A stretch of DNA of 64,000 nt from an uncultured Acidobacteriota bacterium (GTDB lineage: Bacteria; Acidobacteriota; Terriglobia; UBA7540), in NCBI GenBank assembly GCA_963804995.1, contig CAWDSK010000006.1, positions 1,792,001-1,856,000 on the forward strand, written 5' to 3'. How positions within the stretch are numbered: the first letter of the stretch is position 1; every line of letters starts with the position of its first letter. The notes beneath the pieces are model-generated. The model was given only the letters and a program-made list of their open reading frames with translations, did not search any database and had not been told where the DNA came from. Position numbers and translations under genes: made by a program. Shown piece by piece: positions 3,312 to 63,208 of the stretch.

Positions 3312-3476
3312 CTCGGCCAAAGTGGTAGCTTGGCGTGTCCATCTAAAAAGCAGTGGATAGTGGTTAGTTCTTAGGGCACCAACCACTCAAGGCTGTTCAA
3401 ATTAGCGAGCGACCCCAGCGGCTTCGGTCGCCGCGGCGACAAAGCCTCTGGCTTTCCGGCCCGATCCGCTTGATTT

Positions 3477-3709
3477 CTAGTGTGGTGTCCCGGTTAATAT
3501 TTGACAAGGCTGTCCGACCCCCTCACCCCCCAGCCCCTCTCCCCCAAAGGGGCGAGGGGAGAGTTAATTCTCTTGCCCTCGCCCCTTTGGGGGAGAGGGT
3601 GGCTGGCCGAGGCGTTCTCATCAGCCGAGGCCAGAAGGGGGCCCCACGTTCTGCTTGTCGTGGGGGTGAGGGGGTTCTACCCCTTGTCAAATCTAACTCG
3701 GGACACTAC
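3477..3709. mobile_element. MITE type A, opposite orientation, with REP doublet and an extra inserted hairpin
   Basis: CTAGTGTGGTGTCCCGG ... CGGGACACTAC; matches the reverse complement of 1449-1661. Confidence 0.8.
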
Positions 3710-4793: not shown

Positions 4794-5035
4794 CTAGTGT
4801 CATGTAACAGAAGTTCGCTGATTATTGGAAAACCCCCTCACCCCCCAGCCCCTCTCCCCCAAAGGGGCGAGGGGAGAGTTAATTTTCTTGCCCTCGCCCC
4901 TTTGGGGGAGAGGGTGGCTGGCCGAGGCGTTCTCATCAGCCGAGGCCTGACGGGTGAGGGGGTTCTACCCCTTGTCAAATCTAACTCGGGACACCACACC
5001 AGCTTAATCAACGGACTTCTGTTACAGGACACTAG
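4794..5035. mobile_element. Chimeric MITE: type B outer TIRs enclosing type A cargo and one type A arm
   Basis: CTAGTGTCATGTAACAGAAGTTCG ... CGGACTTCTGTTACAGGACACTAG, with an internal CGGGACACCACAC at ~4987-4999. Confidence 0.8.
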
Positions 5036-11286: not shown

Positions 11287-11512
11287 CTAGTGTCGTGAGT
11301 CAGAAATTCGTTGATGATTCGAGAACCCCCTCACCCCCGGCCCCCTCCCCCAAAGGGGCGAGGGGGGAGTTTATTTGAGTTTACTGCCCTCGCCCCCTTG
11401 GGGAGAGGGTGGCCCGCCGCCAGCGTTTTCATCAGCCGGGGCGGGACGGGTGAGGGGGTCGCCCTGCAACCCAGTGAGACTTTGTCAGCGAACTTCTGAC
11501 TCAGGACACTAG
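11287..11512. mobile_element. CTAG-flanked MITE type B with REP doublet cargo
   Basis: CTAGTGTCGTGAGTCAGAAATTCG ... CGAACTTCTGACTCAGGACACTAG. Confidence 0.85.
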
Positions 11513-11642: not shown

Positions 11643-12662
11643 TTGAAAGAGTCGGAACGCCGCAAGCTGGCGGAGCATTTCAGGGACTTGGTTGCCGGCA
11701 CCGGGGGCCCCGAGGTCTGGATCAAGCGCCCGGCCGGTCCCCGTCATGGGACAAGGGCTGAGGCGCCCCTCGAAGCCGTGGCAACTCCGGACGCCTACCG
11801 CGCCGTGCTGTCGGCTGTCCAACTTGAATGTGCAAAGGACGAGTTACAGCTTGGCGGGTCTCAGACTTCCACCGGTGGCCTCCATACGATCGGTCTGGAC
11901 GTTACCCGGCGTGGGCAGCCTATCTGCCGAATCAATCTGCGCGAGGTGCCGCGCCTGCTGCGTGCCGCCATCGTGATCGACGACCTGGGTCAGGACCTGG
12001 AGGCGGCGCACAAGCTCCTGGCCTTGCCCTACCCGTTCACTTTTTCAGTCCTTCCCCATCTGCGCTATTCGGGGACAACCGCCGAGGAAGCGCATCGCCG
12101 GGGACGCGAGGTGATGTTGCACTTGCCCATGGAAGCCCAACCGGGCGCCCATCCCTCGCCGGGTCAAGGGGACATCCACACGGGCATGAGCGCTGCGGAA
12201 GTCCAAGCGGCAGTCCAGAATGATTTGGCGACGGTTCCGTTTGCGGCAGGTGTCAACAACCACATGGGCTCCCAAGCCACGAAAAGCGTGGTATTGATGG
12301 CTGAGGTCATGAAGGTCCTGGCGGAACACCAACTCTACTTTATTGACAGCCGAACCACCGCCAATAGCGTGGCGCTCGATGTAGCGCGCCAGCAGGGACT
12401 CCCGGCCTTCTATCGCGCGGTTTTTCTGGATGACACGGAAACCGTTCCCTACACCTTGGGACAGTTGCGGGAGTTCCGCCGGGTCGTGGAAGACCAAGGG
12501 GCGGCATTGGCCATCGGGCACCCGCACGCGACGACCATTGCGGCCCTGGCAAAGTTCCTGCCGGAACTCGATCCCGCCGATATTGAGATCGTCAAGGCTT
12601 CTGAGCTAGTCCACCTGCCGGAGGTCGCCCGCCTGCACCCCCGGGCCAAGCCGGGGACGTGA
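11643..12662 (+). CDS. Divergent polysaccharide deacetylase family protein (true start possibly ~11524)
   Basis: AIVIDDLG, HLPME, GVNNHMGS, FIDSRT, FLDD, IGHPH. Confidence 0.9.
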   Translation: MKESERRKLAEHFRDLVAGTGGPEVWIKRPAGPRHGTRAEAPLEAVATPDAYRAVLSAVQLECAKDELQLGGSQTSTGGLHTIGLDVTRRGQPICRINLREVPRLLRAAIVIDDLGQDLEAAHKLLALPYPFTFSVLPHLRYSGTTAEEAHRRGREVMLHLPMEAQPGAHPSPGQGDIHTGMSAAEVQAAVQNDLATVPFAAGVNNHMGSQATKSVVLMAEVMKVLAEHQLYFIDSRTTANSVALDVARQQGLPAFYRAVFLDDTETVPYTLGQLREFRRVVEDQGAALAIGHPHATTIAALAKFLPELDPADIEIVKASELVHLPEVARLHPRAKPGT

Positions 12663-12681
12663 GGAGTTTGATTTGAATATA

Positions 12682-12762
12682 TAGCCCTCGCCCCCTTGGG
12701 GGAGAGGGTGGCCCGCCGCCGGCGTTTTCATCAGCCGGGGCGGGACGGGTGAGGGGGTCAAA
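12682..12762 (-). repeat. REP-like element downstream of the DUF559 gene
   Basis: 81-bp inverted copy of 13233-13313 (4 mismatches). Confidence 0.92.
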
Positions 12763-12788
12763 CGCCTGCGCCAGTACTTCGCCGCAGC

Positions 12789-13205
12789 TCACGACTCATC
12801 GGCAAAGGCATCGGGTAGCGACCGGACTATTTTCAGTACGTTCTCCACGAACAATTCGGGCGCCTTAAGAACCATTCCGTTTGGAAATCGTGTCACAACG
12901 TATCCCAGGTCTTTGAGTAGCGCGTCCCGGCGTGTGTCCCGTTTGGCCTGACTCGGCTGCCCGTGCACGCTGCCGTCCAGTTCCACAACCAGTCGCCGCC
13001 GCGGGCAGCAAAAATCGACGATGTATTGGCCGACGGGGTGCTGCCGACGAAATCTAACACCCTTGAATCTGAGAGTACGTAATAAATACCAGGCGATTAT
13101 TTCTGACTCAGTCTTGTCTTGGCGAAGGGTGCGCGCCCTGGCAATTGGTTCTGCGCCACGTGCAAGTGAACGTCGCTTGCGGCGGGGCGGGGCGCGTTTG
13201 GTCAT
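12789..13205 (-). CDS. DUF559 family endonuclease (Vsr-like PD-(D/E)XK)
   Basis: ARTLRQDKTESE, FRRQHPVGQYIVDF, VVELDGSVH, RD..RD..L...GY.V.RF.N; AGGAG SD before ATG 13205. Confidence 0.92.
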   Translation of the reverse strand: MTKRAPPRRKRRSLARGAEPIARARTLRQDKTESEIIAWYLLRTLRFKGVRFRRQHPVGQYIVDFCCPRRRLVVELDGSVHGQPSQAKRDTRRDALLKDLGYVVTRFPNGMVLKAPELFVENVLKIVRSLPDAFADES

Positions 13206-13232
13206 GTTCACCGTCTCCTTCTCCTTCACAAT

Positions 13233-13313
13233 TTTGACCCCCTCACCCGTCCCGCCCCGGCTGGTGAAAACGCCGGTTGCGGTCCACCCTCTCCCCCAAG
13301 GGGGCGAGGGCTA
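13233..13313 (+). repeat. REP-like element upstream of the DUF559 gene
   Basis: TTTGACCCCCTCACCCGTCCCGCCCCGGCTGGTGAAAACGCCGG...GGGGCGAGGGCTA. Confidence 0.92.
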
Positions 13314-13415
13314 GGATCCTTCCGTTTTGAGACTCGGCCATGGCTAAATTGGGCACCAATATACTTGACTCATCCACTGGGTTTTGGTATAGTTTTGCTT
13401 GTGAGGAGCGAAACC

Positions 13416-14384
13416 ATGCGCGAACCCCGTACCCTGCAAGAAGCCATTATCTATTTTTCGAACCCTGACAATTCCCGCGCCTACCTTGTGGCGAAGCGCT
13501 GGCCCCAGGGCGTCATCTGCCCAACCTGCGGGTCGGAAAAGGTCAAATTCAATCCGGCTCGCGGCGTCTGGCAATGCCCCCGCCATCATGCCCGGCGGCA
13601 ATTCTCCGTCAAGGTGGGCACCCTGTTTGAGGATAGCGCCATCGGCCTGGATAAGTGGCTCACGGCGGTGTGGATGCTCACCAACTGCAAGAACGGTATC
13701 AGTTCCTATGAAGTAGCCCGCGACCTGGGGGTCACGCAAAAGACCGCCTGGTTCATGCTGCACCGCATCCGGCTGGCCTTGCAGGACGAGGGCGGCGGCA
13801 AGTTGGGAGGAGAAGTTGAGGTTGACGAAACCTTTATCGGCGGCCTCTCCCGCAACATGCACATCGGTAAGCGGCGGGAGAAAATCCAGGGCACGGGCGG
13901 GCGCGATAAAATTGCGGTCCTGGGAATTCTGAAACGGCGAGGCAAAGTTCGCACTTCGGTCGTTCCCGATGTGACCCTCAAAACTCTTCGCGGCAGCGTT
14001 GTCGAAAACGTTTCGGCGGGCTCGCAGGTTTTCACGGACGCTTGGATTGGTTACCACGGGTTGGATTCCGAATATGTTCATAGCGTTATTGACCATGCCC
14101 AAGCCTATGCCGTGGAAAACGTCCACACCAACGGCCTCGAAAACTACTGGAGCCTTTTGCAGCGCACCCTCCAAGGGACCTACGTTAGCGTCGAACCGTT
14201 CCATTTGTTTCGTTACCTTGACGAGCAAGCCTTCCGTTACAACCAGCGCGAAGGACTTGATGATCGTGGCCGCTTCGATGCGGCGGTTTCCAGGATCATC
14301 GGTAAGCGCCTCACCTGGAATCGCCTCGCCGGAAAGACGCAAGCTCGTCCAACCTGTTCTAACGCACAAGGCAAGGCAACGTGA
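13416..14384 (+). CDS. IS1595 family transposase
   Basis: CPTCGS zinc ribbon, TQKTAWFMLHRIR HTH, EVDETFIGG, FTD, HTNGLENYWS, YLDEQAFRYN. Confidence 0.95.
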   Translation: MREPRTLQEAIIYFSNPDNSRAYLVAKRWPQGVICPTCGSEKVKFNPARGVWQCPRHHARRQFSVKVGTLFEDSAIGLDKWLTAVWMLTNCKNGISSYEVARDLGVTQKTAWFMLHRIRLALQDEGGGKLGGEVEVDETFIGGLSRNMHIGKRREKIQGTGGRDKIAVLGILKRRGKVRTSVVPDVTLKTLRGSVVENVSAGSQVFTDAWIGYHGLDSEYVHSVIDHAQAYAVENVHTNGLENYWSLLQRTLQGTYVSVEPFHLFRYLDEQAFRYNQREGLDDRGRFDAAVSRIIGKRLTWNRLAGKTQARPTCSNAQGKAT

Positions 14385-14401
14385 GCGCCGGGGGAAGCGG
14401 G

Positions 14402-14548
14402 TCAAGCCTTCGCCCGCTTCTTCCGCTGGCGTTGCTTCTTCCACTCCGCTTTCCTTCGCTGTAACTCCTCCCGCGGGACGGAGAAAATCTTGCTGATTGC
14501 AGCGTCGAAATTCTGGAATTCTGAGGTTTTTATCCCCTTCTGGCTCAT
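14402..14548 (-). CDS. Small basic passenger ORF inside IS1595
   Basis: MSQKGIKTSEFQNFDAAISKIFSVPREELQRRKAEWKKQRQRKKRAKA, convergent to the transposase. Confidence 0.55.
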   Translation of the reverse strand: MSQKGIKTSEFQNFDAAISKIFSVPREELQRRKAEWKKQRQRKKRAKA

Positions 14549-14726
14549 AAACATTAAATGCCTCAGTCCGTGACAATACCTTATCCACTCAACATCGTAC
14601 ACCTCCAACCCGTTCATCTCGCACCTTTCGAATGGATGAGTCAAGTAAGTTGGTGCCCTAAATTGGACAGGCTTGGCTTAGAAAAGGCGCGGCAAGGTTC
14701 ACTGGAATGGGATCGTACGTGAACGG

Positions 14727-25836: not shown

Positions 25837-26149
25837 GCCCTCTCCGAGGGGAGAGGGTGGACCGCGGCCAGCGCTTTCACCAACTGGCGCGGGACGGGTG
25901 AGGGGTCACTTCGTCAGCTTCGCCCCACCTGAAGCATCACCCGGCCACGCAGCGCCAACCCGTTCGGAATTCGCAACAATCCCTACGGAGGGAAACCGCG
26001 TGTAATCGTCTCTTGCCGCGTCTTTCCGTCTCCGAATCGGCCGTGAGCGAATACGGCTCAATTCCTCGCACGGAATAACCCCTCACCCGTCGCGCTTCCC
26101 GATCAAGTGCATCGGGACAGCGCGCCACCCTCTCCCCTCGGAGAGGGCT
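25837..26149 (-). pseudogene. Decayed REP-DUF559-REP cassette
   Basis: REPs at 25837-25905 and 26078-26149, oriented as around the intact gene; the interior translates to IRSRPIRRRKDAARDDYTR / GLLRIPNGLAL. Confidence 0.65.
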
Positions 26150-42058: not shown

Positions 42059-42320
42059 GGGCGGGGCTTATGGTTTTTAAATTTTTGACTTGTGGAATTC
42101 TCGAACGCCCACGTGACCCCTCACCCGTCCCGCCCGGGCTGATGAAAACGCCGGTGGCGGTCCACCCTCTCCCCTCGGAGAGGGCTAGGCAGCGTAAGTC
42201 CCAACCTTCTCCCAGGGGGAGAAGGTGGCCGACGTAGGAGGACGGATGAGGGGTTACTTCCACGCGCGGGGCGTCGGAACAATCTACACCTTATGAATTC
42301 GAAAGCCATAAACCTCGCCC
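42059..42320. mobile_element. MITE type E enclosing a REP doublet
   Basis: Imperfect TIR GGGCGGGGCTTATGGTTTTTAAATT / AATTCGAAAGCCATAAACCTCGCCC; REP pair at 42116-42255. Confidence 0.6.
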
Positions 42321-47050: not shown

Positions 47051-47168
47051 CTAGTGTGGTGTCCCGTGTTAGAGTTGACAATGGGTAGAACCCCCTCACC
47101 CGTCTGGCCTCGGCTGATGAGAACGCCTCGGACAGCCTTGTCAAATATTAACCGGGACACCACACTAG
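47051..47168. mobile_element. Internally deleted MITE type A
   Basis: Same TIRs as 1449-1661; central hairpins missing. Confidence 0.85.
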
Positions 47169-50676: not shown

Positions 50677-50903
50677 TTAGTGACCTGAGTCACAAGTTCG
50701 CTGATTATTAGAGAACCCCCTCACCCGTCCCGCCCCGGCTGATGAAAACGCCGGTGGCGGTCCACCCTCTCCCCCAAAGGGGCGAGGGCGACAAATTCAG
50801 ATTAACTCTCCCCTCGCCCCTTTGGGGGAGAGGGGCGGGGGTGAGGGGGTCGTCCTGGAACCCATTGAGACTTTGTCAGCGAACTTCTGACTCAGGACAC
50901 TAG
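50677..50903. mobile_element. MITE type B with inverted REP cargo
   Basis: TTAGTGACCTGAGTCACAAGTTCG ... CGAACTTCTGACTCAGGACACTAG. Confidence 0.85.
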
Positions 50904-62981: not shown

Positions 62982-63208
62982 CTAGTGTCCTGAGTCAGAA
63001 GTTCGCTGACAAAGTCTCACTGGGTTCAAAGGGGACCCCCTCACCCGTCCCGCCCCGGCTGATGAAAACGCCGAGGGCGGGCCACCCTCTCCCCCAAGGG
63101 GGCGAGGGCAGTAAATTCAAATGAACTCCCCCCTCGCCCCCTTGGGGGAGAGGGGCCGGGGGGAGGGGGTTTTCCAATAATCAGCGGACTTCTGACTCAG
63201 GACACTAG
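62982..63208. mobile_element. MITE type B with REP doublet cargo
   Basis: CTAGTGTCCTGAGTCAGAAGTTCG ... CGGACTTCTGACTCAGGACACTAG. Confidence 0.87.

Follow-up and report, generated by a model that had tools for sequence, protein, structure and literature searches.

A DUF559 nuclease gene between inverted BoxC/PIT/TM triplex repeats: a candidate selfish cassette in an acidobacterial genome

Why should an intact nuclease gene lie between two inverted copies of the commonest short repeat in its genome? The question is raised by a locus in a 64,000-nucleotide stretch of DNA from an uncultured Acidobacteriota bacterium (Terriglobia, UBA7540; assembly GCA_963804995.1, contig CAWDSK010000006.1, positions 1,792,001 to 1,856,000 of the forward strand; hereafter the window), in which a gene of the DUF559 family is bracketed by 81-nt folding repeats. 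A similar layout is found in the RAYT/REPIN system (REPtron), in which inverted copies of a dispersed hairpin repeat stand on either side of a single-copy HUH Y1 gene. To our knowledge, HUH RAYTs are the only repeat-maintaining enzymes known, and we know of no role assigned to DUF559, a very large family. An initial annotation of the window, made from its letters alone, had proposed that a nuclease of another fold takes the RAYT part for a REP-like element. The analysis reported here covers the locus, its genome, its genus and related loci across phyla. The pairing of gene and repeat was found to be oriented and recurrent, and the repeat to belong to the BoxC/PIT/TM class. Our favoured reading, in which we place about as much belief as doubt, is that the window locus is an intact, free-standing selfish cassette, the nuclease of which likely cuts the folded arms and would so move the cassette and its gene-less derivatives.

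The left arm of the cassette occupies window positions 12682 to 12762 (+ strand; nhmmer 86.1 bits, rank 35 of 391 long-type copies in the genome) and consists, in + strand order, of a tail hairpin (CCCTCGCCCCC-TT-GGGGGAGAGGG, with one G.A mismatch), a 38-nt middle hairpin and a G-rich head (GGGTGAGGGGG) that adjoins the gene. The right arm (13233 to 13313, - strand; 86.9 bits, rank 24 of 391) is an inverted copy that agrees with the left at 77 of 81 positions, and its head, CCCCCTCACCC on the + strand, adjoins the start of the gene. The arms, 81 nt each, are 95% complementary, stand 470 nt apart and turn their heads toward the gene. The DUF559 gene between them (12789 to 13229, - strand) is intact, its open reading frame (ORF) encoding 146 amino acids from a GTG at 13229 or 138 from an ATG at 13205; 26 nt separate the stop codon from the left arm and 3 nt the GTG from the right arm, and the initial description of an intact DUF559 gene within about 30 bp of 81-bp inverted repeats is borne out. 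Since the GTG sits 9 nt past the end of the upstream-arm head, as it does in other cassettes, this head may double as the ribosome-binding site of the gene. The product matches Pfam PF04480 with an E-value of 2.1e-33 (114.9 bits against a cut-off of 20.6), in keeping with a Vsr-like PD-(D/E)XK nuclease, and D64, E75, D77, H81, D90 and R93 in its E-x-D...H region, invariant in 16 aligned relatives, would by analogy with the family be the catalytic residues. The closest solved structure is 3HRL, an 'endonuclease-like protein' of Neisseria gonorrhoeae (E 1.2e-25); the homing endonuclease I-Bth0305I (3R3P) was matched weakly, at E 0.36, and DUF559 has been placed in one group with Vsr and I-Bth0305I (PMC3424549).

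As for the repeat itself, the arms are BoxC/PIT/TM intrastrand-triplex repeats (TM below) with an extra hairpin. Repeats of this class have been catalogued since the 1990s, in hundreds of genomes, and we know of no origin or partner enzyme for them. The published TM consensus reads CCCTCNCCC-N3-6-GGGNGAGGG-N3-GGGNGAGGG; 23 E. coli copies have been tabulated, most with one mismatched triplet, and triplex formation has been demonstrated for TMECO oligonucleotides (Holder et al. 2015, PMC4666352). Both window arms contain the three blocks of this consensus in the same order (pyrimidine strand, purine strand, G-rich third strand), with near-identical letters and the same mismatch as the published copies; the third block mirrors the purine strand, a correspondence (G on G, A or T on A) that purine-motif triplexes require and that can be read directly in the arms. 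Like the published repeats, those described here are dispersed, intergenic and often arranged as inverted tandem pairs, and they differ in having the 38-nt hairpin in place of N3, in reaching hundreds of copies per genome and in having, at this locus, a nuclease gene between two copies (PMC4666352). Short copies that lack the middle hairpin, such as those at 11328 to 11366 and 1577 to 1619, match the consensus spacing, including the common one-mismatch ('A mm') form. When each arm was folded as single-stranded DNA with ViennaRNA, two hairpins formed, one at the tail with a single internal mismatch and a longer one in the middle, and the G-rich head stayed unpaired. The head and two hairpins that the initial annotation had assigned to each arm are therefore recovered with the head free, except that the middle hairpin is longer than was written, and its REP-like element is indeed a dispersed hairpin repeat, but one of a known triplex class rather than a new REP. 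From the block layout, the arms are predicted to be triplex-forming DNA and, because RNA, according to Holder et al. (2015, PMC4666352), cannot adopt a purine-motif triplex, the fold would point to single-stranded DNA. No partner gene is named in that paper, from which the word 'endonuclease' is absent.

Is the association of gene and repeat specific? In this genome, three of the four DUF559 genes adjoin long-type copies within 2-30 bp. Two of them, the window gene and that at C8:30370-30780, have a copy on either side with its head turned inward, and the third (C6:1390717-1391025) is preceded by a copy at a distance of 18 bp and followed by a truncated head; the fourth, a distant copy within a longer ORF, has no flanking repeat. 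Across the genus, 15 of 20 loci (L001-L015 of L001-L020) match the long-type model beside the gene, 11 with full-length arms on both sides, three with one arm partial, and L013 on the sole side available, its gene lying at a contig start; at L004, the nearest long-type copies are ~160 bp from the gene. The five genus loci without such arms are less than 50% identical, and at least L017 is flanked by doublets of another subtype. All 22 further genus units were armed, 18 on both sides and four cut by contig ends. On a wider scale, 80 related DUF559 loci were collected across phyla, of which 79 could be tested: at 57, the inverted repeats on the two flanks scored higher than the 99th percentile of 273 shifted controls, and a triplex motif with its head beside the gene was found at 62 (40 on both sides), against seven of 275 controls (none on both sides). 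The letters differ across phyla, and the head co-varies in mirror fashion with the purine strand of the hairpin, for example GGGAGAGGG with GGGTGAGGG, GGAGGGG with GGGGTGG, and GGGAGAAGG with GGATGAGGG. The enrichment of inverted repeats around DUF559 genes that the initial annotation had anticipated is thus present both in the genus and across phyla. A chance pairing was rejected on the basis of these shifted and motif controls and of head-probe shuffles, a 25-nt head probe with up to three mismatches giving 10 matches in the window and none expected (100 shuffles).

The association may extend to E. coli. In strain K-12, the 3' end of ycjD, a DUF559 gene, overlaps a TM-like hairpin, and TMECO no. 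9 lies ~170 bp beyond it, with a duplicated piece of the ycjD 3' end in between. YcjD, 3HRL and the window product are all DUF559 proteins, and YcjD too is encoded near TM repeats; unlike the window locus, the ycjD locus is degenerate and one-sided. Our control-genome search for DUF559 returned no E. coli match, though K-12 annotates YcjD as DUF559.

Some units of the survey have additional structure. The third DUF559 unit of this genome (L161, C6:1390500-1391120) is bracketed by a ~42-bp direct repeat, starting ATTGCGGGAAAACGTCC, one copy of which lies beyond the doublet upstream of the gene and the other beyond the truncated head downstream of it. At L004 (G020:C20), direct tandem arrays of long TMs lie on both sides of the DUF559 cassette, at 588-1334 and 2080-2910, with periods of 221 bp and ~330-420 bp, and at L142 (G021:C58:25781-29100) three arm-gene-arm units stand head to tail within 2.2 kb, two of them with broken or frameshifted genes.

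The dispersed copies were counted in two ways, long-type copies by the nhmmer model and all TMs by a motif finder that requires a hairpin and a mirror third block. The 7.55-Mb genome holds 391 long-type copies by the former and 659 TMs by the latter, against 16 in a reversed-sequence control. Of the 659, 360 belong to 180 head-out doublets and 255 are solo copies, and 36 head-in pairs were counted; by head, 380 are of the GGGTGAGGG type, 166 of the GGGGTGG type and 113 of other types. Twelve long copies (nhmmer) and 19 elements at ~12 loci (motif finder) lie in the window, close to the ~21 copies at 11 loci first counted, although the locus near 47090 proved to be a partial long-type copy, of the head half only (47085 to 47127, + strand, nhmmer). 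The contrast first noted between heads facing inward at the gene and outward in gene-free doublets holds for all six of the latter in the window: 783 to 939 (of the same repeat family), 1490 to 1619 (a long element with a classic short TM) and 11328 to 11457 (a classic short TM, without the middle hairpin, with a long-type TM), all from the motif finder, together with 4833 to 4961, 42118 to 42252 and 50717 to 50849, recorded by nhmmer and the motif finder. The remaining copies comprise a motif-finder element at 3518 to 3562 next to an nhmmer copy at 3572 to 3639, two copies at 25838 to 26147 whose heads face each other ~175 bp apart (motif finder), and the copy or copies at 63036 to 63150 (nhmmer and motif finder).

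Three further features of the dispersed copies were noted. A 91-aa ORF without Pfam match (1094 to 1366, - strand) lies between head-in long TM copies at 870-943 and 1483-1566 and is the only other small ORF so framed within the window. The triplex-forming strand of 192 solo TMs lies on the GC-skew-positive strand in 115 cases and on the other in 77 (p 0.007), a bias taken as a weak hint because the GC skew of the assembly is noisy. Lastly, a 14-nt palindrome, GTCGCCGCGGCGAC, has ~95 copies genome-wide, one of them in the window near 3427 (C6:1795427); in the places read, it mostly stands at a hairpin apex, in repeats of at least two families that are not related to each other (TM tail hairpins and GTAG-type REPs), where it appears to substitute for the original loop and inner stem, and one deleted cassette carries it in each arm (C3:684039 and 684412).

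How far, then, does the likeness to RAYT/REPIN go? Both systems have a small nuclease-type gene within inverted copies of a dispersed hairpin repeat that occurs mostly as inverted doublets (180 head-out doublets here), and in both the subtype and abundance of the repeat go with the gene (clade). In contrast to the HUH Y1 transposase, the enzyme here is PD-(D/E)XK/Vsr-like, and its repeat has a third-strand block; unlike the single-copy RAYT, the DUF559 gene is multi-copy, patchy and often decayed. The REPtron analogy of the initial annotation therefore stands for the inverted flanking copies and the dispersed doublets, and falls short in that the gene is multi-copy and decaying and a second triplex family lacks a cognate DUF559. 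None of the 14 Y1/HUH (PF01797) genes of this genome lies within 600 bp of a long-type nhmmer copy, on which grounds an HUH/RAYT partner for this repeat was rejected; together with the PF04480 match, this agrees with the PD-(D/E)XK, non-HUH nuclease first proposed. The lack of a nearby HUH gene removes the obvious alternative and proves nothing positive.

The abundance of the repeat was next set against the presence of the gene, long-type matches being counted in this genome, 24 congeners and 16 outgroup genomes and compared with a protein search. Thirteen genus genomes with a DUF559 protein at least 55% identical to that of the window hold 25-297 long-type copies, the 12 without one hold 1-14, and the outgroups none; at this identity cut, the arm subtype is abundant in the genus only where this nuclease clade is present. 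Because the genus genomes, as relatives, are not independent, an rpoB tree was built (22 genus rows and three outgroups; G004, G009 and G012, which gave no rpoB match, were left out). The state of the DUF559 gene changes at least five times on this tree, at least three of them on well-supported branches, and all three independent pairs on supported branches agree, for example G013 with 36 copies against six in its sister G005, and G008 with 25 against one in G001; 10 of the 36 long copies of G013 are themselves beside a DUF559 gene or fragment. The correlation of copy number with gene presence suggested by the initial annotation was thus recovered in the counts, with a post hoc cut, and in three of three pairs, short of significance (p 0.25).

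These counts also bear on a host role, in which DUF559 would be a structure-specific repair nuclease, kept by the host to process triplex or hairpin repeats at which replication stalls, and its flanking copies would be regulatory or incidental. A Vsr-like fold, the purifying selection described below, the greater number of repeats where DUF559 is present and the link between TM repeats and genomic instability (Holder et al. 2015, PMC4666352) would all suit such a role. It is nevertheless the least probable of the explanations weighed here, and we consider it very unlikely, for the gene is distributed patchily and in multiple copies, with up to 28 matches in one genome and many of them broken, and the window cassette is a lineage-specific insertion.

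That the cassette was inserted can be seen from its surroundings. Its left neighbour is a polysaccharide-deacetylase gene, and at the site downstream of the orthologous gene the cassette, long-type copies and GGGTGAGGG heads are all missing in 22 of 22 congeners, from which it follows that the cassette is an insertion in this lineage; one congener, G023, has a GGGGTGG-type repeat at this place. The left edge of the insertion falls within a few bases of the arm tail. To the right, an IS1595-family element (13344 to 14665), encoding a Zn-ribbon and a DDE_Tnp_IS1595 transposase, starts ~30 bp outside the right arm; as one of four genome copies that are at least 99% identical, it was rejected as a part of the cassette. 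The exact empty site was sought among the congeners and not recovered, as the IS1595 element interrupts the right flank and downstream synteny is lost. Of the words sampled from window positions 12300-13340, at most 12% occurred in any one sequencing run, and the shared words most likely come from the repeat only.

Further insertions were sought in G013 by comparison with its sister G005 and with G017 and G021, in two of four 20-kb regions (four of eight long TMs; L189 and L191 were left out), and three sites could be resolved. All three G013 TM blocks, one head-out doublet and two head-in pairs with 55-57 bp spacers, are absent from the three relatives, at sites without a TM, and one head-in spacer opens with the junction of an intact cassette, up to the GTG start. 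The occurrence of such arm-x-arm blocks at repeat-free sites speaks against simple homing into existing repeats. Beside the G013-only doublet at L190 (G013:C42, ~137150-137290) stand two paired GTAG-type REPs, enclosed by short inverted repeats (GTGTCCTAATTTG / CAAACTAGGACAC) and by a direct repeat of 12 bp (TACCGTCCGCGA); together they resemble a separate small element with its target duplication.

Homing deserves consideration in its own right, as the DUF559 product could be a free-standing homing endonuclease that copies its own gene into existing triplex repeats and has no part in their spread. DUF559 shares a fold group with the EDxHD homing endonuclease I-Bth0305I (PMC9403480, PMC3424549), and with enzymes of this kind a selfish, patchy distribution and cycles of decay, many DUF559 copies being decayed as in a homing cycle; moreover, the arms of one cassette can be of different subtypes, both of which are common as dispersed copies. 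It differs from them in the weakness of the match noted above, in the lack of an intron or intein and in being flanked by inverted repeats instead of a split host gene, the gene being free-standing in an intergenic insertion. The deacetylase site without long-type copy or GGGTGAGGG head in all 22 congeners and the two G013 head-in sites that are TM-free in relatives do not fit a target made of existing repeats, nor do the long-type copies of this genome include an unoccupied head-to-head site: the smallest gap between full-length copies is 151 bp, and two smaller gaps, of 66 and 93 bp, each involve a partial copy. Homing without repeat spread is, in our judgement, improbable, if less so than a host role.

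The favoured reading of a selfish cassette is helped by the state of the gene copies. In this genome, nine of 16 head-in pairs less than 600 bp apart contain an intact DUF559 gene or a recognisable remnant, and three of the nine share one internal deletion. Among 26 genus units, 16 have open frames, and the ratio of nonsynonymous to synonymous substitution rates (dN/dS) has a median of 0.22 over 75 pairs, within-genome copies included. The DUF559 gene is under purifying selection while single copies decay, which together give the pattern of an active selfish gene.

Could the cassette instead be moved by another enzyme? The genome contains eight copies (C3:518780-520605 and others) of an insertion sequence, 1.8 kb long, that encodes a DDE_5 transposase and ends in 17-bp terminal repeats (GGAGTTTCTACATTT), and 171-bp miniature elements with the same ends (C6:703457-703627, C6:1258123-1258293 and C6:1411797-1411967; also C5:1182937-1183095) whose interiors contain triplex doublets of the GGGGTGG type. 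The near-identical cassettes found in G021 and G003, and three deleted cassette copies of this genome, also sit in a 17-bp-ended miniature element, which reaches ~60 bp past the arms; like the insertion sequence and the miniature elements, they lie beside duplicated hairpins, and they may have been moved by the DDE_5 transposase. Each DDE_5 copy that was read has one copy of a ~20-bp hairpin on either side, a different hairpin at each site, as though a whole hairpin target had been duplicated. The system has in common with miniature inverted-repeat transposable elements (MITEs) served by a DDE transposase that gene-less miniatures are bounded by inverted repeats and that some cassettes lie inside such an element; unlike those MITEs, the window cassette has no inverted repeats other than its 81-nt folding arms and no protein other than the nuclease. 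Among the 53 matches of GGAGTTTCTACATTT in the genome, none is at the window cassette, and the C6b copy and the G013 insertions likewise lack the 17-bp ends. Because these ends are absent there, the DDE element was rejected as the mover of the window copy, though other cassette copies lie within it.

On a wider form of this alternative, repeats and cassette would be moved by a DDE transposase in trans, or by recombination or replication errors at folding DNA, with DUF559 as cargo or merely tolerated. Besides the 17-bp-ended cassettes, the 166 GGGGTGG-type TMs without a cognate nuclease gene in this genome and four ordinary genes that also lie between head-in long copies speak for such a view. 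It does not readily account for arms that adjoin the gene in one fixed orientation, also in phyla without such an insertion sequence, for the window cassette and G013 insertions devoid of the 17-bp ends, for purifying selection on DUF559 even among copies in one genome, or for the restriction of abundant arm subtype to genomes with the nuclease clade. We regard it as unlikely, yet as the strongest of the three alternatives.

In the reading that we favour, the DUF559 nuclease would recognise the single-strand fold of the arms (hairpin plus third strand) and make the breaks that initiate movement; host repair or replication would finish the insertion, and the enzyme would act in trans on gene-less pairs and doublets, as RAYTs do on REPINs. 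Both the cleavage and the mobilisation are inferred, and several observations weigh against them. We know of no strand-transfer activity of a PD-(D/E)XK nuclease alone, and the target-site duplication sought at the three G013 insertions was not readable through divergence. Head-out doublets, which make up 55% of the TMs (360 of 659), are not simple cassette remnants, and decay alone does not yield them; plain cassette remains were therefore rejected as a general account of the dispersed repeats. The 166 GGGGTGG-head TMs have no cognate-flanked DUF559 gene in an assembly that is 92% complete, a cassette often combines arms of two subtypes, and the near-identical G021 and G003 cassettes, with the three deleted copies, belong to the 17-bp-ended elements. 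The link between abundance and gene, furthermore, rests on relatives, with a three-pair sign test that cannot reach significance and an identity cut of 55% set after the data were seen; with a cut of E <1e-30, G015 (four copies) and G022 (14), the DUF559 arms of which are of other subtypes, become carriers and the ranges overlap. Finally, no DUF559 was found in the 80%-complete G009, which has 103 TM matches, metagenome-assembled genomes being prone to lose repeat-flanked genes.

A broader claim would make DUF559 the missing partner of BoxC/TM repeats and, with them, a second, non-HUH mobile system of repeat plus nuclease that would range from candidate-phyla bacteria to E. coli, the enzyme recognising a folded single-strand triplex at the 81-nt arms and moving the cassette and gene-less pairs; we advance it tentatively, with less confidence than the reading of the window locus itself. 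Our literature searches, with subscription-only papers and supplements outside their reach, found no paper linking DUF559 to these repeats: none was found that mentions both DUF559 and repetitive extragenic palindromic elements; by title or abstract opening, none of the papers listed as mentioning DUF559 was concerned with repeats; and searches on intrastrand-triplex repeats of bacteria and on BoxC together with an endonuclease brought up no title or abstract of relevance. The 'DUF559 domain-containing protein' is among the products reported as enriched in predicted programmed inversions, which would fit a gene between inverted repeats (PMC9881135). The repeat class and the gene family have both been described before; as far as was searched, no publication reports their partnership or that the arm-gene-arm unit behaves like a transposon.

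The specific, oriented and phylogenetically recurrent pairing gives DUF559 and the TM repeats each a testable function. The genus offers a good test bed, its sister species differing in gene and repeat load and its intact, deleted and miniature forms coexisting. If the proposed role is true, a PD-(D/E)XK-based system would join the HUH RAYTs among repeat-maintaining enzymes, and the finding would point to the recognition of a DNA triplex fold by a nuclease.

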